A DNA stretch of 64,000 nt from an uncultured delta proteobacterium (GTDB lineage Bacteria; Desulfobacterota; Syntrophia; Syntrophales; UBA2185). The notes beneath the pieces are model-generated. The model ran no database searches and was not told the origin of the DNA. It worked only from the letters and a program-made list of their open reading frames with translations. The translations under genes and the position numbers were made by a program. Below, in pieces: positions 27,311 to 43,363 of the stretch (positions are counted from its first letter, which is position 1; each line of letters begins with the position of its first letter). The stretch covers positions 128,001-192,000 of the forward strand of contig CAVOID010000003.1 in assembly GCA_963695875.1 (NCBI GenBank), in the 5' to 3' direction.

Positions 27311-27357
27311 ATTTTATGACAACCCGTCAGCTATGCCATTGGCGGGACAATAAACAG

Positions 27358-27393
27358 GAAGAGCGCCCATTCGCTTAAAATGGACGCTCTCCC
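27358..27393 (-). terminator. Hairpin downstream of ilvD
   Basis: GAGCGCCCATT / AATGGACGCTC inverted repeat. Confidence 0.55.
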
Positions 27394-27426: not shown

Positions 27427-29090
27427 TCAGTCTTTCAAGATGGCGCCGGTGCTGGCTGAGGTAACCATTCTGGCATACCGGACGAGGTAACCGCTGTTAA
27501 TCGCCGGTGGCTGGGGTCTGAATTTCGCCTGTCTTCGCTTTAATTCCTCCGGGTTGACCTTGAGGGTAATTGTCTTTTTCGGAATATCGATGGCGATAAC
27601 ATCACCCTCCTTTACTAGGCCGATGGGGCCTCCTTCAGCAGCCTCCGGAGAGATGTGTCCGATAGCGGCGCCGCGTGTACCACCGCTGAACCTTCCATCC
27701 GTCAGTAGGGCCACCGTCGTATCGAGTCCCATCCCGGCTATTGCTGATGTCGGTCCCAGCATCTCCCGCATACCGGGTCCTCCTTTCGGACCCTCATAGC
27801 GGATTACGACAATATCTCCCGGTTTGATCTTCCCGCCGAGGATGGAAGCAATCGCATCGTCTTCGGCATCGAAGATGCGGGCCTTGCCTTCATTGACGAG
27901 CATATTTTCTGCGACAGCGGACTGCTTCACCACGGCACCGTCAGGCGCCAGATTTCCTCTGAGGATGGCAATGCCCCCTTCTTTCGTATATGGTTTGTCC
28001 AGAGGCCTGATGACCGAATTGTTTAGTACCCTGGCGTCTTTCAGATTCTTGCCCACGGTTTTCCCTGTCACCGTCATGGCATTCAGATTAATGACACCGA
28101 GTTGACTTATTTCCTTCATTACAGCCTGGACACCGCCTGCCATGTCCAGGTCTTCTAAGTGGTGCTGTCCTGCGGGACTTAGTTTGCAGATATTGGGCGT
28201 TTTTTTGCTGATCTCATTGAACATGTCCAAATCCAGCTTGATTCCCGCTTCATGGGCAATGGCAGGAATATGCAGGACCGTATTGGTCGAACACCCCAGG
28301 GCCATGTCCACGGCGATGGCATTTTTAAAGGCTTTCAAAGTGGCTATATTCCTCGGACGGATGTCTTTCTTGAGGAGTTCCATGATTTTCATGCCGGCCT
28401 GCTTTGCCAGGCGCTGCCGGGCCGCTTGAACAGCGGGTACCGTGCCATTTCCGGGAAGGCCGAGACCAAGGGCCTCGGTGACGCAGTTCATGGAATTTGC
28501 CGTGTACATACCGGAACAGGATCCACAGCCCGGGCAGGCACAGTCTTCCAGAGCCTTGAGATATTGCTCCTTCATCTGGCGGGATTTTACCTTTCCCACG
28601 CCCTCGAAGACGCTGATGAGGTCCACAGTTTTCCCTTCCAGGGTTCCTGCCATCATAGGACCACCGCTGATGAAGATAGTAGGGATGTTCAGGCGCAGTG
28701 CCGCCATCAGCATTCCGGGGATGATCTTATCGCAGTTGGGGATCATGACCAGGGCATCAAAGGGATGGGCCATGACCATAACCTCGATGGAATCGGCAAT
28801 GAGCTCCCGGCTGGCAAGGGAGTATTTCATGCCGGTATGCCCCATGGCAATGCCGTCACATACGCCGATGACGGGAAATTCGACAGGTGTGCCCCCCGCC
28901 ATGCGGATGCCCTGACTTTCACATCTTCGGTTATGATATCTAAATGAATATGGCCGGGGACGATTTCATTGGCGGAGTTCACCACGCCGATCAACGGCTG
29001 TGCGATTTCTTCATCGGTATACCCCATGGCCTTGAACAGAGATCTGTGGGGTGCCCGCTCCAATCCTTTTTTCATCAGGTCGCTTCTCAT
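27427..29090 (-). CDS. ilvD: Dihydroxy-acid dehydratase (frameshift near 28910)
   Basis: [33 protein letters not shown] and TDGRFSG. Confidence 0.97.
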
Positions 29091-29129
29091 GCTTTCCTCC
29101 TGCTTTCCTCCTGTTTTTTTACAATGCCG

Positions 29130-30177
29130 CTATTTTTTTCTCCGTTCCGGCCTTAAAGATCGAACTACTGCACCTGCCAGCCACATCTCGCTGTTTTTCA
29201 TGGTGTCGAGTTCCTTCTGCAGTTTCTCCCTGTAGTCGGGAGCAGAGTTGACTTCCAGGACAATCGCGGTTTCTTTGCCGGAGGCCACTCTGTCATATAA
29301 TGCATCGAAAACAGGTGCTACAGCATCACGGAACCTATTTTTCCAGTCCAAGGGCGCCTCGCTGGGCCGTTGTACTGCAATTGGCATACATCCAGTCCAT
29401 GCCGTTTTGAGCGACGAGCGGCATGAGGCTCTGGGTCAGCTCTTCGACGGTTTCATTGAAGGCTTCGCTCGGACTGTGGCCGTGTTTGCGAAGGACATTA
29501 TACTGGGCTTCCAGGACACCGGCCAGACATCCCATGAGGACGCCACGCTCACCTGTGAGATCGCTGTAAACTTCTTTTTCAAAGGTGGTCGGGAACAGAT
29601 ATCCCGAACCGATGGCAATACCAACGGCAAGGGTTCTTTCCAGAGCCTTTCCCGTGTAATCCTGGAAAACGGCGTAGCTGGAATTGATGCCGCTACCGGC
29701 AAGAAAGTTGTCGCGCACGGTGCGTCCTGCACCTTTTGGCGCTACCAGAATAACATCGATGTCGGCGGGAGGAATCACACCGGTCTGCTCTTTGTAAACG
29801 ATGGAGAATCCGTGAGAAAAATAGAGGGCCTTCCCTTTCGTCAGGTGTGGTTTGAGTTCCGGCCACATGGCCTTCTGGCCCGCATCGGACAGCAGGTACT
29901 GGATAATGGTGCCGCGTTTGGCCGCTTCTATTGGCGGAAACAGGGTCTCACCGGGGATAAAGCCTTCATCGATGGCCTTTTGCCAGTTGTATTCTCCCTC
30001 GCCGACGATACAGCGGATTCCGTTATCTTTCATATTCAAGGCCTGTCCCCGTCCCTGAACACCGTAACCGATGACGGCAACTATTTCATCTTTAAGCACC
30101 TCCCGTGCCTTTTCCAGTGTAAATTCCTCAGAGGTGACAACCTCTTCCATGACTCCGCCAATGTTGATTTTTGGCAT
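29130..30177 (-). CDS. ilvC: Ketol-acid reductoisomerase, Ilv5-like (frameshift near 29350)
   Basis: GYGVQG, FSHGF, VAPKG, SDLTGERG and NCSTTAQRGAL. Confidence 0.95.
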
Positions 30178-30257
30178 ATAAAGTACCTCCTCACTTTGAT
30201 GATTAAATTATTAAAAGTGCGATATAGCTTGTACTTTAAAACACTCTTGATCTGCGA

Positions 30258-30743
30258 TTATTTATGACGCTCCAAGGCGATAACTCCCGTTCTCGTAAAA
30301 TCATCCATACCCATTTTTTCTAAGAGAGCCAGGGCATTATCGATGTCTTCTTTATCGCCCGTGACTTCCAGAATACAGATATCAGCATCCATGCTTACAA
30401 TTTTCCACTTGAGTGTGTCAATAGTTTGCATGATTTTTCCTTGATTCGCCTCCGTAAATTTCATCCTGACCAGTATCATTTCCCTACAGGCTGAATCACT
30501 GCGCGTCAAATCCTTGACTTCGAGGACATCGATGATTTTGGTCAGCTGCTTTTCAAGTTTGATGACGGTTTCCCGATTACCGAGGGTTGTAATAATGATT
30601 CTGGTAATATCAGGATTCCTGGTGATGTTTGCCGAGATGCTTTCAATGTTGAACCCCCGTCCGCTGAAGGTTCCGGCAATCCTTGCCAGGACGTCAGGTT
30701 TGTTGTTCACTAGGATTGAAATCGTGTTTTCTTTAATTTCCAT
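30258..30743 (-). CDS. ilvN: Acetolactate synthase regulatory subunit (ACT); Asp at the conserved Gly
   Basis: [37 protein letters not shown]. Confidence 0.9.
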
Positions 30744-30782
30744 AATAAGTTGAATCCTCTCTCAATATTTTTTGATGTGAAA

Positions 30783-30912
30783 CCCTTGAAAATATGTGGT
30801 GTGTGCCATTCCGCGGGGAGAAGCAACGAGGAATCTTTAAGATCCCTTCCTTCCGTCGGTACAAGGATTTGTACTTTAGATCGAAATGACACAGTGCGCG
30901 TTTTTCAAAGGG
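30783..30912. repeat. REP/MITE-like palindromic element
   Basis: Outer CCCTTGAAAA / TTTTCAAAGGG and inner GTGCCATTCC / GAAATGACAC inverted repeats. Confidence 0.55.
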
Positions 30913-30935
30913 CACTAAATATCTTTTAATATGTC

Positions 30936-32628
30936 TTACTTGCTCAAGACCATCTCTGTCAGCGCCGCACCTGGTGAAACCATAGGATATACACCTTCCT
31001 CTGGTTCGACATGGAAATCCATTATCACTGTCTTTGAGCGTATCAAGACCTTGTTGTAATGTGGCCTCTACCTCTTCGGGACGGGTTGCCCGCAGGCCGA
31101 CAGCATCGTAGGCTTCAGCCAGTTTCACAAAATCAGGGACATTGCGTATATTACTATGAGAATACCGTTTCCCATAAAATAACTCCTGCCACTGGCGAAC
31201 CATGCCCAGGAAGCCATTGTTCAATATGACTATTTTAACCGGAAGGTCGTAATTGACAGCCGTTGCCAGCTCCTGAATGTTCATCTGAATACTTCCGTCA
31301 CCGGCAATATCCACAACAACCCTGTCAGGACAAGCAACCTGTGCACCTATTGCTGCCGGGAAATCCGAAGCCCATTGTACCCAGACCGCCCGACGAAATG
31401 AAGGAGTTCGGATAATCAAAATGATAGAATTGTGCAGCCCACATCTGGTTCTGTCCCACCTCTGTCGTTATGATTGCCTTGCCCTTTGTGAGGCGGTACA
31501 GTGTATCAACCACGTGCTGGGGTTTTATTTTGTCACCCTGGCAGTATGTCATGGGTGCGTGCTTTTTCCATGCCGCTATTTGATCGAGCCATGCCTTTGT
31601 CTGTGCTTCGGGGATTACAAATTTATCATCGGCAATCCACTTGTTGAGAAGCTGTAATACAGGCTTACAGTCACTGGCAATCGACAGATGTGTCTTTACA
31701 AATTTGTCGATTGACGCCGGATCAATGTCAATGTGGATAACCTTGGCATGCGGCGCAAAGGCATCCAGCTTTGAAGTGACACGGTCGTCAAACCGCATGC
31801 CGAGGGCAATCATCAGGTCGCAATTACTGATGGCCATGTTAGCATAATAGGTGCCGTGCATCCCCGGCATGCCAAGCCAGTGGGGGTCTGTGGCAGGAAA
31901 TGCCCCGAGCCCCATCAATGTTGAGGTAATGGGGATGTTTAGCGCTTTCACAAATGTTCTCAATTCATCCCAGGCCCGGCCTAGCATTACACCACCACCC
32001 GAGATAATGAGCGGTTTTTCAGACTTCCTGATCATGTTAAGGGCTTTTTCGCACTCCTTTTCGACAGAAGTCTTTTTACCGTTATTAGGAAGGCTCAATG
32101 CCCAGGATATATCTTTCTCATCTATGAGAGCCCGTGTGACATCCTTGGGAATATCGATCAGGACAGGTCCCGGACGCTCCTGAGCGGGCTATATAGAAAG
32201 CCTCTCTGACGGTTCGTCCAAGGTCTTCAATCCGCCTGACCAGAAAATTGTGCTTGGTGCATGGTCTTGTAATACCGGTGATGTCCACTTCCTGAAAGGC
32301 ATCGCCGCCGATCAGTGATGTCGCTACCTGTCCGGTCAGTACGACAACCGGAATGGAATCCATAAAGGCATTGGCAATACCGGTGACCGTATTGGTTGCT
32401 CCAGGTCCCGATGTCACCAGGCAGACACCAACCTTGCCGGAAGCCCTTGCGTACCCATCAGCCGCGTGTATGGCACCCTGTTCATGGCGGACTAATATAT
32501 TCTTGATATTTGCTCCTGTACAGTTCATCAAAAATGTCGAGTACGGCACCACCCGGAAAACCGAAGATGGTATCAACTTTCTCTTGCTCCAAGGCATTAA
32601 AAAGAACTTGTGCTCCTGTTAATTTCAC
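30936..32628 (-). CDS. ilvB: Acetolactate synthase large subunit, isozyme A (several frameshifts)
   Basis: GTG start [40 protein letters not shown] and MVRQWQ. Confidence 0.93.
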
Positions 32629-32688
32629 TTGTAACCCCCCCTTTTTTGATTCTTGGTATCTTTGTAAGTCTTTGTTCAGAATTTCTCC

Positions 32689-32722
32689 AAAAAAAAACCG
32701 TTACCTTTGGCTGGTAACGGTT
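32689..32722 (-). terminator. Attenuator terminator of the ilvB-A leader
   Basis: AACCGTTACC-agccaaa-GGTAACGGTT followed by a U-run. Confidence 0.9.
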
Positions 32723-32755
32723 CTTAGTTGCAAAATATATGCTAAGCGCAAACCA

Positions 32756-32830
32756 TCAGCCAGCCCCTTTCCGGAAGGGAATAATTATCCCGATAATTAT
32801 GGCGATGGTTACGACATTTGGTTCAAACAT
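32756..32830 (-). CDS. Ile-rich leader peptide MFEPNVVTIAIIIGIIIPFRKGAG
   Basis: GAGG SD, 24 codons including 7 Ile and 2 Val, followed by antiterminator and terminator. Confidence 0.88.
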   Translation of the reverse strand: MFEPNVVTIAIIIGIIIPFRKGAG

Positions 32831-32896
32831 GTAATTAATCCTCAATTAGTAATTAATCATTAACAGGCTCTTCTAACATTGTCAAGAATATTTTTT

Positions 32897-33409
32897 TCAG
32901 GGTTTTCCTTTTGGTCTATTCCGTTGCATGGCAATTGATCCGGTTCTGTTCGTTTCTTCCACACCAAAGGGTTGAAAGAATTTTAAGACTGCTGCCGTTT
33001 CGTCCTGATGGCCTGTTATTTCCAGGATAAAATAATCGGGGGTCATAGTGACTATTCTGCATCCGAACATTTCAATCGCCCGCAGGACTTCGGAATGTGC
33101 TCCTTCTTTTATAGTAACACCTATTAGCATCAGTTCTCTTTGAATGAAGGCCTGTCCAGAGAGATCGGAGACTTCTATAACGTCGACAAGTTTGTCCAGT
33201 TGTTTTTTTATTTTTTCGGTAAAATCGGGATCCGATTCGCTCGTCAGCGTGATTCTCGAGACATCGGGGTTCGTGGTTTCTGCCACACAGAGGCTTTTGA
33301 TGTTGTATCCATGACGGCCAAATACACCCCCTACGCGGGACAGCACGCCCGGTTGGTTATTGACTAAAATGGAAATGGTCTGTTCCTGTTCACGTATTTT
33401 TCTAAACAT
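32897..33409 (-). CDS. ilvN: Acetolactate synthase regulatory subunit (canonical)
   Basis: ISILVNNQPGVLSRVGGVFGRHGYNIKSL; NRTGSIAM. Confidence 0.92.
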   Translation of the reverse strand: MFRKIREQEQTISILVNNQPGVLSRVGGVFGRHGYNIKSLCVAETTNPDVSRITLTSESDPDFTEKIKKQLDKLVDVIEVSDLSGQAFIQRELMLIGVTIKEGAHSEVLRAIEMFGCRIVTMTPDYFILEITGHQDETAAVLKFFQPFGVEETNRTGSIAMQRNRPKGKP

Positions 33410-33472
33410 AGTATGTCCTCCGGAGTATATCGATCAATCAAGCAAGTCTGACGGCACTGTAAAAAGCCCATG

Positions 33473-35147
33473 TTAAGCAAGTCTTTCATACATCATCTCG
33501 ATGTTTGAGCATCCGGGCGGTATGATGGGATACACATAATTTTCCGGATCGATCACAGCTTCCAGCAGAAACGGACCATCAGAGTTGGCCATTGCTTCAA
33601 TGCCGCGTTTGGGGATCTTCTTCCACGGCAATCCTGCAACCCTGTATACCGAAGCCCCGGGCGACGGCGACGAAATCAACGTTTCTTCCCAGATCGATGG
33701 TGTTAAAGCGGCCATTGTAGAAATGATGCTGGATCTGGCGGATCATCCCCAGGTGGCCGTTATTGATGACAATAATCTTTATCGGCAGATTGTAGTAGCC
33801 GATTGTCGCCAGTTCCTGGATATTCATGTAGAACCCACCGTCACCCGTGATAGCTACGACGGCCCTTTCCGGTGTGCCGACCTTGACGCCGATTGAAGCG
33901 GGTAGGCTGAATCCCATAGTTCCCATCCCGCCGCTGGTGATTAGGCTGCGAGGGCCTCTCGGCCTCCATGTACGGATTGTCCATATCTGATTGAGTCCCA
34001 CGTCTGCGGTCACCGTTGTTTCCCTGGGCATGGCATCCTGAATCATGCGGATGAAATCTCCCGCCTGTCCGCACCCGCTGTCGGAAAATTTTTGTACTAT
34101 CGCATCCCTCTCCGTATCGATTCTCTGCAGCCACTCCGACTTTCCCCTCTCATCAATGAGGGGCAGCAAAGCCGCGAGTGTTTCATTAATATCACCGATG
34201 TAGGGTAGATTGATCTTGATGCTCTTGCCGATTGATGTGGGATCAATATCGATCTGGGCGATTTTTGCCAGAGGCGCGAATTCATCGATTTGCGCAGTAC
34301 TGCGGTCCGAAAAACGGGTACCCACAGCAAGGATAAAATCGCTCTGATGCACCATTTTGTTTGCCAGCTCGTTTCCGTGAGTTCCGATCAAACCCAGGTT
34401 ATATCCATTGGTGGAATCGACGGAACCAACGCCCATCATTGTTGTGACGAAGGGGATTTTTGCCTTTTCTATAAGCTCACGGATCAGGTGAAATGAATTG
34501 CTCAGTTTGACTCCTCCACCGATAATGAGAACCGGTCTTTCGCTCTGATTTAAAGCCCTGGCAATTTTCTCCAGTTGTTCCGGGTCTTCCACCACCCTGC
34601 CGTTCGTTTTCAATGCAGAGGCCGATTGTTTTTCCGCCGGCTCGCATTTCGATGCCAGAATGTCACGAGGCAGATCAACGAGGACAGGGCCTGGTCGCCC
34701 GGTCTTGGCCAGTTCAAAGGCCTGTCTAAGCGAGGGTGCAATATTGTTCACGTCGTGCACCTGGTAGCTGTGTTTGGTGATCGGCATTGTGATCCCGATA
34801 ATGTCCGTTTCCTGAAAAGCGTCCTGACCAAGGAGGCCTGTGCTCACCTGCGCGGTCAGGGCGACCATTGGTGTTGAGTCCATATAGGCTGTGGCAATAC
34901 CGGTTACCAGGTTGGTAGCTCCCGGTCCCGATGTTGCGAGGCATACACCTACCTTTCCGGTGGCGCGGGCGTAGCCGTCGGCGGCATGTGCCGCTGCCTG
35001 TTCGTGCCGCATGAGATAATGTCGGATCTGGCTATCCGTCAGGCGGTCGTGTAAGGGCAGTGTGTTTGCCCCGGGGTATCCGAAGATAACATCCACCCCT
35101 TCCTCTCTGAGGATTTGTATAATGATATCTGCACCGATGGTTTCCAT
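33473..35147 (-). CDS. ilvB: Acetolactate synthase large subunit, isozyme B (frameshift near 33610)
   Basis: [24 protein letters not shown] and GDGG..NN. Confidence 0.92.
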
Positions 35148-35185
35148 ATTTCTTTTCCTTCAATTTTCTTAATTCTTTGGACAAT

Positions 35186-35220
35186 AAAAAAGCCGCAAAT
35201 TCTTCTGAACGGCGGCTTTT
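35186..35220 (-). terminator. Second tandem terminator in the ilvB-B leader
   Basis: AAAAGCCGC ... GCGGCTTTTTT. Confidence 0.75.
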
Positions 35221-35227
35221 CAAATAT

Positions 35228-35260
35228 AAAAAAAGCCGCGGGTTTGCGGGGCCCGCGGCT
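35228..35260 (-). terminator. Attenuator terminator of the ilvB-B leader
   Basis: AGCCGCGGG-ccccgcaaa-CCCGCGGCT followed by a U-run. Confidence 0.9.
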
Positions 35261-35281
35261 CTTCGTTTCTATGTCAATCCA

Positions 35282-35368
35282 TCACAGAAACCGAGCAGCG
35301 GTCCCCCTGAGTACAAGTACTACCACTACGGCTACGATTAGAATGTTGCTCAGTTTGTGATGGGTCAT
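35282..35368 (-). CDS. Val/Leu-rich leader peptide MTHHKLSNILIVAVVVVLVLRGTAARFL
   Basis: 28 codons with an ILIVAVVVVLVL run, followed by antiterminator and terminator. Confidence 0.88.
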   Translation of the reverse strand: MTHHKLSNILIVAVVVVLVLRGTAARFL

Positions 35369-35399
35369 TTATTTACCATTATTCACGAATTATTGAAAA

Positions 35400-35427
35400 A
35401 TATTATATTAAAATTTGAATTTGTCAA
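35400..35427 (-). promoter_or_regulatory. Sigma-70 promoter for the ilv leader
   Basis: TTGACA-N16-TAATAT on the minus strand. Confidence 0.55.
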
Positions 35428-40461: not shown

Positions 40462-41922
40462 ATGGATCTCAATCAGTTGACTATTCACGAGTTGCAGAAA
40501 TTGATCAGGTCGGGAGAGGTAACTTCTTCTGATATCGTCAAATCAGTGTTCAAGAGGATTGATGCTGTAGAGGGGAGTGTTCATGCATATATTACCCTCA
40601 TGAAGGATTATGCCTTTGAAGAAGCTGCCAAGAGCCGACCGGGATATCAAGGCAGGGAAGATCAAGCCCCTGACCGGTATACCCATCGCCCTTAAGGATA
40701 TTGTATGTACAAAGGGTTTTTTGACGACATGCGGATCCCATATCCTGCATAACTATATCCCGCCGTATGATGCCACAGTAGTGGAAAAATTAAGAGAAGC
40801 CGGCGCGGTTTTTACGGGGAAGACAAATATGGATGAATTCGCCATGGGCTCATCTACGGAGACCTCGTATTTCGGGATTACGAGAAATCCCTGGGACCTC
40901 GACAGGATACCCGGGGGGTCCAGCGGCGGGTCCGCGGCGGCCGTGGCCGCTGATGAGTGTATCGCCTCTATCGGGTCCGATACAGGCGGCTCCATCAGGC
41001 AGCCCGCTGCCCTGTGCGGCGTCGTCGGGATGAAACCCACCTATGGCAGGGTGTCCCGGTATGGTCTGATCGCCTTTGCCTCCTCCCTGGATCAGATCGG
41101 TCCTTTTACCAAGGATGTAGAGGACTGCGCCATCATGATGAATGTCATTGCCGGTTATGATCCGAGGGAATCGACGTCCGTTCCCATGGATGTGCCTGAT
41201 TACCGGGAATTTGTCTCACGGGGCATCGACGGCTGGAAGGTTGGGATTCCGAAGGAATACTTCATCGAAGGGATTGACCCGGAAGTCATGGAGGCGATGC
41301 AAAGAAGCCATTACAACCATCGAGGGACTCGGCGCTACAGTGTATCGAGATATCCCTTCCCCATACGGAGTACTGCCTGGCCGTGTATTACATCATTGCC
41401 CCGGCGGAGGCGAGCTCCAATCTGGCCCGCTATGACGGAGTGAAATACGGCTTCCGGTCTCAGGACAGCAGGGATCTTCTGGATATGTACAAAAAGACAC
41501 GCTCGGCCGGTTTCGGAGCTGAGGTAAAAAGGCGGATCATGATCGGAACGTATGCATTGTCTTCAGGATATTATGATGCGTATTACAAGAAGGCTTCCCA
41601 GGTACGGGCGCTTATCAAGCGGGATTTTGAGGAGGCCTTCAAACAGTGTGATGTGATCCTTACCCCCACATCTCCCACCCCTGCCTTTAAAATCGGCGAG
41701 AAAATGGACGATCCCCTCCAGATGTACCTCTCTGATATATTCACCATATCAACAAACCTGGCGGGGATACCGGGGATATCCGTACCGTGCGGATTTACAA
41801 AGGATGGACTGCCTATCGGCGCGCAGTTTCTGGCAGGACACTTTGAAGAAGGCAAGTTGATCCAGATAGCCTCTGCTTTTGAAAAGCACGCAAACCTTGA
41901 GAAAAGGAGACCAGCTCTCTAA
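40462..41922 (+). CDS. gatA: Asp/Glu-tRNA amidotransferase subunit A (frameshifts)
   Basis: [31 protein letters not shown] and SSNLARYDG. Confidence 0.96.
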
Positions 41923-43363
41923 TGGCATATGAACCGGTTATCGGGCTGGAGGTTCATGCCCAGCTCCTCACAAAATCAAAAATTTTCTGCAGCTGCTCGA
42001 CTCAGTTCGGGGCTGAGCCCAACAGCCATACCTGTCCCGTATGCATGGGTATGCCCGGGGTCCTGCCCGTCTTGAACAAGACAGGTGGTCGAGTTCACGA
42101 TGAAAATGGCCCTGGCGACGCACTGTAGGATCAACGAGTCATGCAATTTCGCGAGGAAAAACTATTTCTATCCTGACCTCCCCAAGGGGTATCAGATATC
42201 CCAGTATGCCCAGCCCCTTTCGGAACACGGGTATGTGGATATTGAGCTGGACGGCGGGAAGAAAAGGATCGGCATTACCCGGATTCACATGGAGGAAGAC
42301 GCGGGGAAGCTTTTGCATGATGAGCATCTGCCGTCGAGTTATGTGGATCTGAACCGGACAGGAGTTCCCCTTATCGAGATCGTCAGCGAGCCGGATATGA
42401 GAAGCGCCGAGGAGGCCGCTGCCTATCTGAGGAGACTCCATGAAATACTGGTCTATCTGGAGATCTGCGACGGGAACATGGAAGAGGGGAGTTTCCGCTG
42501 CGATGCCAATGTATCCCTCCGACCTAAAGGAGAAACGGCCTTCGGTACGCGGACGGAACTGAAAAATATGAACTCCTTCCGAAATGTCCAGCGTGCCCTG
42601 GAGTATGAAATCAAGCGACAGCAGTACATTCTGGAGAACGGCCAGGAGGTGATCCAGGAAACCAGGCTCTGGGATGATTCGCAAGGGGTGACCCAATCCA
42701 TGCGGGGCAAGGAAGAGGCCCACGATTACCGCTATTTCCCCGATCCCGATCTTGTGCCCATCGTCATTGATCAGGAGTGGATAGAAGCGGATAAGAAAAA
42801 GCCTCCCCGAACTGCCCCTGGAAAAACGGGAGCGGTTTGTCAGAGATTATCAGATTCCTCCCTACGATGCCGGGGTGCTGACGTCCAAGCCGGGCTCATG
42901 CCGATTACTTTGAGGAAGTAGTTGCGATCTCCGGAAAACCGCAAGATAGCCAGCAACTGGGTTATGGGCGATGTTCTGCGGTTTCTCAATGAAGAAAAGC
43001 GGGACATTCAAGGAATGTCCCGTTCGTCCCGCGGCTCTTGGCGGAGATGATTCTGACTCATTGAGGACGGAACCATCAGCGGCAAGATGGCCAAGGATAT
43101 TATCGTGGAAATGTACAGAACCGGCAAGCCGCCCAAAACGATTATCGAAGAAAAGGGCATGGTACAGATTACCGATGAAGATGCACTGGCAAAAACCATT
43201 GCTGGAGGTCATAGCGGCAAATCCGGCCCAGCTCGAGCAGTACCGGGGAGGCAAGGAAAAACTCTTCGGGTACTTCGTCGGTCAGGTCATGAAGGCTACC
43301 CAGGGAAAGGCCAATCCCCAGCTCATCAACGAGCTTCTGAAAAAGATGTTGGCTGTGTCATAA
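41922..43363 (+). CDS. gatB: Asp/Glu-tRNA amidotransferase subunit B (frameshifts)
   Basis: [25 protein letters not shown] and [13 protein letters not shown]. Confidence 0.96.

Follow-up and report, generated by a model that had tools for sequence, protein, structure and literature searches.

Two acetohydroxyacid synthase isozymes, each behind its own predicted attenuator, at an ilv locus of an uncultured Syntrophales bacterium

The stretch of DNA analysed here, called the window throughout, comprises 64,000 nucleotides of contig CAVOID010000003.1 (positions 128,001 to 192,000; assembly GCA_963695875.1) from an uncultured member of the Syntrophales, and we describe a locus in it for making branched-chain amino acids that contains two gene pairs for acetohydroxyacid synthase (AHAS). 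Coordinates are window positions, and the genome holding the window is referred to as G000. Every element lies on the minus strand, from 35427 to 27357, in the order promoter-like site P1, Val/Leu leader, two terminators, ilvB1-ilvN1, promoter-like site P2, Ile leader, terminator, ilvB2-ilvN2-ilvC-ilvD and a final terminator. The span singled out by the original prediction, which was made from the letters without database searches, ends exactly on the -35 hexamer of P1 (35427) and on the stop codon of ilvD (27427).

The first unit opens with P1 (35400..35427; TTGACA, 16 nucleotides, TAATAT; 10 of 12 matches), directly upstream of a Val/Leu-rich leader peptide of 28 codons, MTHHKLSNILIVAVVVVLVLRGTAARFL (35282..35368; six Val, five Leu and two Ile). 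The attenuator RNA that goes with it (35185..35310) holds two terminators, T1 (35260..35228) and T2 (35220..35185), each a hairpin with a T-run, and is followed by ilvB1 (33473..35147), an AHAS large subunit with the motif RQIQ and a single-base insertion near 33614, and by ilvN1 (32897..33409), a two-domain AHAS small subunit with Gly21 at the position of G14 in Escherichia coli IlvH. Between ilvN1 and the second leader lies P2 (32856..32885; TTGACA, 18 nucleotides, AATGAT; again 10 of 12 matches). The second leader peptide, MFEPNVVTIAIIIGIIIPFRKGAG (32756..32830), is Ile-rich, with seven Ile, two Val and no Leu among its 24 codons, and in its attenuator RNA (32689..32765), the 5' arm of the antiterminator (32765..32751) overlaps the leader stop codon and the terminator occupies 32721..32689. 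Next come ilvB2 (30936..32628), a large subunit with a GTG start, the motif RQWQ and single-base insertions near 32508, 32177, 31357 and 31033; ilvN2 (30258..30743), again a two-domain small subunit but with Asp17 at the IlvH G14 position; ilvC, for ketol-acid reductoisomerase (about 29130..30177); and ilvD, for dihydroxy-acid dehydratase (27427..29090), the last two each with a frameshift in this assembly, near 29350 and 28915. A terminator-like hairpin 3' of ilvD (27357..27393; 16 pairs, eight of them G-C) is the likely end of the operon. Both halves of the layout that the original prediction had proposed are thus found at the locus: a Val/Leu attenuator before an ilvBN pair with the canonical Gly, and an Ile attenuator before an ilvBN pair with a Gly-to-Asp change, followed by ilvC and ilvD. 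Promoter-like matches in the region are no more frequent than in shuffled sequence (12 against 11.2), so it is their position that recommends P1 and P2.

Families were assigned with NCBIfam profiles, comparing bit scores with the curated cut-offs. IlvB1 scores 620.9 bits with TIGR00118 (cut-off 538.35); the three open reading frame pieces of IlvB2 score 204.7, 304.2 and 148.1 bits, each under that cut-off because frameshifts in the assembly split the gene. Both small subunits have the length of the two-domain type and are well over the cut-offs of TIGR00119 (56.9) and NF008864 (119), with 164.9 and 177.1 bits for IlvN1 and 135.9 and 149.5 bits for IlvN2. IlvC (265.5 bits, cut-off 226.15) and IlvD (747.5 bits, cut-off 618.15) are likewise assigned.

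The two small subunits differ at a residue of known consequence. We aligned IlvN1 and IlvN2 with the three small subunits of E. coli K-12, five sequences in all; the Gly conserved at the valine site, which sits in the loop that follows the first strand of the ACT domain, is present in IlvN1, as it is in E. coli IlvN, and is replaced in IlvN2, where the Asp stands at the position of a Glu in E. coli IlvM. According to the available text of PMC5727371, a change of the conserved Gly renders AHAS III insensitive to valine, and the small subunits of AHAS II, which is itself insensitive, do not conserve it; the available part of PMC9834717 reports that a triple change, Gly20Asp/Ile21Asp/Ile22Phe, relieves the inhibition in IlvN of Corynebacterium glutamicum. 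By analogy with these mutants and with IlvM, we infer that the Asp type represented by IlvN2 is valine-insensitive. The Asp is fixed in all 34 collected sequences of its type, and the Asp and Gly types have only eight positions that are fixed differently. Of the 150 best representative clusters out of 1.84 billion proteins, 146 gave an alignment at the residue, and 10 of them have Asp, these being among the closest to the query (43–61% identity); the aligned domains from the representative clusters carry Gly in 153 cases, Asn in three and Ser in two. Of 401 genomes sampled from the phylum, 15 have the Asp motif; 14 of the 15 belong to this order, namely G000 and all 13 other genomes of the order that were sampled, while a reversed-pattern control gave four hits in the same 401 genomes. 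In the sole genome outside the order (G418), the motif lies far from ilvB, and given the four control hits, it may be there by chance; we did not count it as a case.

A second contrast lies in the large subunits and is new relative to the original prediction, which had not looked at them. At the Trp of the RQWQ motif, which we take to be W464 in the numbering of E. coli AHAS II, the window IlvB2 has Trp, like E. coli IlvI and IlvG, whereas IlvB1 has Ile, and E. coli IlvB of AHAS I has Gln. That AHAS I also does without the Trp means that its loss in IlvB1 leaves the membership of this protein among the AHASs standing. The available text of PMC5727371 describes the Trp as the key site for 2-ketobutyrate, AHAS I with its Gln as showing no preference for that substrate, and a Trp-to-Leu change in AHAS II as losing the preference. 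On the strength of this residue, IlvB1 would be mainly acetolactate-forming and IlvB2 2-ketobutyrate-preferring. The replacement is stable among relatives: the 120 best homologues of IlvB1 (68–96% identity) have Ile in 75 cases, Met in 41, Leu in three and Trp in none, with one lacking the motif. Elsewhere in the phylum, non-Trp motifs with Leu, Phe or Val occur in other families (14 of 151 genomes, with no control hits).

The arrangement recurs in related genomes, which are Syntrophales or Syntrophaceae metagenome-assembled genomes from peat, fen and sediment. Two IlvN genes lie about 2.5 kb apart on one contig in 20 of the 21 other genomes of the family, and the contig of the 21st breaks off too soon for a decision; the tandem layout is also found in two genomes from other families of the order, and three more have the pairs on different contigs. 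The order ilvN2-ilvC-ilvD is kept in 16 of 16 further related loci. When the residues were paired across the window and 40 related stretches (41 in total), all 33 pairs with an Asp-type IlvN had a Trp-type IlvB in front of it, and all 28 with a Gly-type IlvN had a non-Trp IlvB there (24 with Ile, two with Leu and two with Met). One more Asp-type locus (L063), the 34th, is not in this count, as the search pattern missed its IlvB motif. The leaders follow suit: in genomes with both isozymes, the Asp-type pair stands behind an Ile-rich leader in all 25 readable cases, one more genome having an assembly gap at that place, and the readable leaders of Gly-type pairs are Val-rich in 26 of 26, those of G028 and G036 included. 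Val-type leaders share a C-terminal tail, ...GTAAR..., in both single- and two-isozyme contexts, which suggests one homologous Val attenuator that now serves the non-Trp pair in the two-isozyme genomes, where the older Asp/Trp pair may have gained a leader for Ile only. Identity between the two pairs stands at 37% for the small subunits and 41% for the large ones, just as it does to E. coli AHAS III, and since the pairs are no closer to each other than to that enzyme, the sequences speak for old paralogues or acquisition and against a recent duplication; the phrase "duplicated ilvBN" in the original prediction is misleading in this respect.

Leader-peptide attenuators upstream of ilvB are widespread, and the attenuators alone would be ordinary. 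Leader 1 is kept in 21 of 21 aligned sequences (alignment A2) and leader 2 in 22 of 22 (alignment A1). We folded them with RNAalifold and ViennaRNA, masking the bases under a modelled ribosome, and ran a second test that mimics the order of transcription by folding only as far as the terminator loop; both are energy models only. In these models, the terminator and antiterminator folds are mutually exclusive in both leaders. In the consensus fold of leader 1, the last leader codons, which form the 5' arm of the antiterminator, pair with the 5' arm of T1. When the ribosome stalls in the Val/Leu run of the window leader, the antiterminator takes up the 5' arm of T1, and the T1 3' arm, now free, binds the 5' arm of T2; with the ribosome at the stop codon or absent, both terminators form. 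The antiterminator arm of leader 2 binds the loop of its terminator as well as the 5' arm. Folding in transcription order reproduced the switch between stall and stop in every one of the 21 Val/Leu leaders and in 19 of the 22 Ile leaders. A side observation on leader 1 (35185–35260) is that a single antiterminator may disarm two successive terminators by way of the pairing between the T1 3' arm and the T2 5' arm.

The attenuator terminators come from this folding; a generic terminator scan of the region did not list them. In Rfam, a scan of 20000–45000 (E up to 1) turned up no family to which either leader belongs, and its weak small RNA match on the plus strand at 35193–35267, over the terminators, reached 22.4 bits against a gathering score of 97 and was taken as chance. 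Across G000, a scan for an Ile/Leu/Val-dense mini-ORF (a short open reading frame) with a terminator gave six candidates, two of them the present leaders and the other four without a plausible downstream gene, at thresholds so strict that the leaders of cimA and leuA described below were missed. As the leaders, gene pairs and alleles recur in relatives and the scan of the whole genome gave few candidates, the arrangement of the locus is more than chance.

With 627.5 bits, the citramalate synthase of G000 (cimA) is over its cut-off of 450, and for threonine deaminase (IlvA, TIGR01127), the best score in the genome, 82.6% complete by marker genes, is 50 bits against a cut-off of 378.75; with no threonine deaminase over the cut-off, isoleucine is probably made by the citramalate route. 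Outside the window, cimA, with which the route to isoleucine begins, has a leader of its own (G000:C5:64524-64667), comprising a promoter-like site, a mini-ORF that contains Ile, MITAQSVIRIEGIIRFPK, and a terminator. At the cimA loci of relatives, a permissive search found an Ile-rich mini-ORF upstream in 22 of 22, and the terminator is shared in 18 of 22. Also outside the window, and about 480 nucleotides upstream of leuA, lies a leader of 39 codons, 12 of them Leu, with a terminator (G000:C4:306054-305875, minus strand); between this leader and leuA, a repeat element of about 45 nucleotides occurs twice. Four attenuators, each with its own amino-acid specificity, thus seem to steer the pathway: one for Val/Leu, one for Ile, one for Ile on cimA and one for Leu on leuA.

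Given the anatomy of the locus, its conservation, the co-variation of the residues and the mutually exclusive folds, all of which are observed, we consider it fairly probable that this Syntrophales bacterium has branch-specific AHAS isozymes, each with its own ribosome-mediated attenuator. When Val- or Leu-charged transfer RNA is scarce, the ribosome would stall in leader 1; the last leader codons would then pair with the 5' arm of T1, the freed 3' arm would tie up T2, and RNA polymerase would read on into ilvB1-ilvN1. This first unit would supply a valine-inhibited enzyme making mainly acetolactate for valine and leucine. The attenuator of the second unit would work in the same way but sense isoleucine only, and its product, preferring 2-ketobutyrate and insensitive to valine, would let the synthesis of isoleucine continue at any level of valine. 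The second unit would be induced together with cimA, the separate Ile leader of which lies elsewhere in the genome. That both leaders regulate in vivo we infer from the modelled folds.

AHAS isozymes that differ in feedback, in the choice of substrate and in attenuation are a textbook example, which to our knowledge is hardly known outside the enterobacteria. The analogy that the original prediction drew with AHAS I and II of these bacteria holds and is deepened by the Ile of IlvB1 against the Trp of IlvB2, by the Glu of IlvM and by the Ile leader of cimA. Like unit 1, ilvBN of E. coli (AHAS I) stands behind a Val/Leu-rich leader, ivbL, the translation of which, MTTSMLNAKLLPTAPSAAVVVVRVVVVVGNAP, has Val and Leu only as regulatory residues, and it combines a small subunit that has the conserved Gly with a large subunit that lacks the specificity Trp. 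AHAS I is valine-sensitive and has no preference for 2-ketobutyrate (PMC5727371, available text), a likeness that we would expect of unit 1. There are, however, clear differences. AHAS I has Gln at the Trp position, where Ile, Met or Leu is found here, and a single-ACT small subunit of 96 residues, compared with the 170-residue, two-domain IlvN1; its large subunit is only 39% identical to IlvB1, and on length, residue and identity, the two are not orthologous. Leader 1 also has two chained terminators, unlike ivbL.

The counterpart of unit 2 is the ilvGMEDA operon of E. coli and Salmonella (AHAS II). Its leader, ilvL, translated in E. coli as MTALLRVISLVVISVVVIIIPPCGAALGRGKA, resembles leader 2 in having an Ile run just before a Pro, and the operon shares with unit 2 the retained Trp, an acidic residue in place of the Gly (IlvM has Glu) and the co-transcription of ilvD. 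AHAS II is valine-insensitive according to the accessible part of PMC5727371, and the same would hold for unit 2. On the other hand, the multivalent ilvL is for Ile, Val and Leu, and leader 2 essentially for Ile only; IlvM has 87 residues and one domain, in contrast to the two domains of IlvN2; the operon partners are ilvE, ilvD and ilvA there and ilvC and ilvD here; and 2-ketobutyrate comes from threonine deaminase there and most likely from citramalate synthase here. Orthology with AHAS II fails in the profile comparison as well, IlvB1 scoring 576.3 bits with NF006524 against 738 (the pieces of IlvB2 score lower) and IlvN2 33.5 bits with NF008362 against 68.

Two further comparisons place the system. 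The valine-resistant mutants, an E. coli IlvH mutant at the conserved Gly and the C. glutamicum IlvN triple mutant, share the position with IlvN2 and also the change from Gly to Asp (PMC5727371 and PMC9834717, available text); those are laboratory changes, whereas the Asp here is natural and fixed across a clade. The ilv attenuators of other phyla, such as that of ilvBNC in C. glutamicum, likewise have regulatory codons in a mini-ORF and, after it, a terminator and alternative hairpins, but they have a single multivalent sensor before one AHAS, while two monovalent sensors in series serve two isozymes here. The delta-proteobacteria sampled in the available text of PMC5727371 have a single AHAS, except Desulfovibrio. 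A full-text literature search returned no description of this two-isozyme arrangement in the Syntrophales, nor of a natural Asp-type small subunit or a natural Ile/Met/Leu-type large subunit.

The same isozyme-splitting logic appears to have arisen independently in this uncultured, syntrophic and anaerobic lineage, being not orthologous to enterobacterial AHAS I and II, and here it uses two-domain subunits that resemble IlvH and is joined to the citramalate route. The residues would be natural counterparts of engineered changes, Gly-to-Asp for a valine-resistant AHAS and the loss of Trp for an acetolactate-only AHAS, and the monovalent leader peptides suggest sensors that could be combined to steer a branched pathway.

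Several of our results weigh against this division of labour. Eight genomes from other families of the order have the Asp/Trp type alone, with leaders that are Val-rich in five, mixed Ile/Val in two and Ile in one. The original prediction had proposed that leader type and allele should co-vary; they do so in all 25 readable genomes with both isozymes but not in seven of these eight, where the Asp type stands behind a Val-rich or mixed leader. The leader type thus tracks the role of the enzyme in the genome rather than the allele as such, and with a sole Asp-type subunit behind a Val-rich leader in five of eight genomes, the Asp is not tied to an isoleucine role. A sole AHAS that lacked valine feedback would, moreover, be unusual. 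Conversely, G028 (L069, L093), a genome of the order that is 98% complete, appears to rely on the non-Trp, Gly-type AHAS alone, its leader being Val-only, and the non-Trp type can therefore presumably serve the synthesis of isoleucine too. The genes ilvC and ilvD, needed for all three amino acids, are placed behind the Ile attenuator only. The comparison with IlvM comes from a five-sequence alignment at 23% identity. Finally, no pair with compensatory changes was found in the antiterminator of leader 2 or in terminator T1 of leader 1; the stems are near-invariant, with 96.4% and 98.8% paired cells, respectively, and covariation is missing because they hardly vary. The attenuator structures are predicted from conservation, folding energy and a classical layout.

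The strongest alternative is that the isozymes differ mainly in expression rather than in feedback, the Asp type still responding to valine or another end product or binding some other effector, with Asp17 being a mark of the Syntrophales lineage and not a means of avoiding valine toxicity. The Asp type does look ancestral and is order-wide, as the distribution of the motif among the 401 genomes indicates, and its role as the sole small subunit found in eight genomes, mostly behind Val-rich leaders, is what such a lineage mark would predict; that so few positions are fixed differently between the types points the same way. We nevertheless regard this explanation as unlikely, if well worth keeping in mind. 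A change of the same Gly abolishes valine inhibition in E. coli AHAS III, and Gly20Asp is part of the C. glutamicum triple (PMC5727371 and PMC9834717, in the text available); the naturally insensitive IlvM carries Glu at the position; and the Asp goes without exception with a large subunit of the Trp type and, wherever a second isozyme exists, with an Ile leader.

A bolder variant would go beyond branch-specific isozymes. Here, the Asp-type ACT domain would be retuned to another signal (isoleucine or 2-ketobutyrate, for example, or no ligand at all), the non-Trp enzymes would be a natural class of dedicated acetolactate synthases, and each branch would have controls of its own on its enzyme as well as on its RNA, by way of the network of four attenuator sensors. 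We think this rather doubtful; if it were true, the Syntrophales would control the isoleucine and valine/leucine branches independently.

Less likely still is that the replacement of the Trp in IlvB1 is neutral for substrate choice, so that both enzymes are general AHASs and the second copy merely adds capacity under a shortage of valine or leucine. G028, which appears to live on the non-Trp type alone, would be easily accommodated by this, as would the Leu, Phe and Val motifs in other families of the phylum. A neutral site is, however, difficult to reconcile with the loss of preference on Trp-to-Leu change in E. coli AHAS II and the absence of preference in the Gln-bearing AHAS I (PMC5727371, available text), with the replacement being fixed in 119 of 120 close IlvB1 homologues or with its co-variation with the small-subunit type in 28 of 28 pairs.

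The least tenable explanation, that ilvB2 is a decaying pseudogene and that only one AHAS functions, draws on the four frameshifts in its 1.7 kb against one each in ilvB1, ilvC and ilvD, and we rejected it as most improbable on the short-read contigs of four metagenome runs with near-identical strains, which we aligned to the ilvB1-ilvB2 stretch. Relative to G002, a genome of the same genus, the window has four single-base insertions in ilvB2 and one in ilvB1; the frameshifts in ilvC and ilvD are seen by comparison with relatives only. Each of the extra letters in ilvB2 (31039, 31361, 32178, and 32508 or 32512) is left out in the contigs of three of the four runs, and the one in ilvB1 (33615) in those of all four. 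As the run contigs omit the extra bases, ilvB1 and ilvB2 are to be read as intact genes, with frameshifts that belong to this assembly alone. The ilvB2 of G002 is intact as well, with 562 amino acids and 91–96% identity to the pieces of the window IlvB2.

The assembly, the incompleteness of which was given above, appears to be indel-rich: gatA and gatB, which are essential (window 40610–42921), are likewise split by single-base indels, and the ilv locus has roughly one indel per kb. The spacer of about 120 nucleotides between ilvB2 and ilvN2 is a different matter. It folds stably, has no strong repeat elsewhere in G000 and is absent from G002; the contigs of runs X1, X2 and X5 span 30806–30927 without a gap, while a contig of X3 skips it, and the spacer is thus real but present in some strains only.

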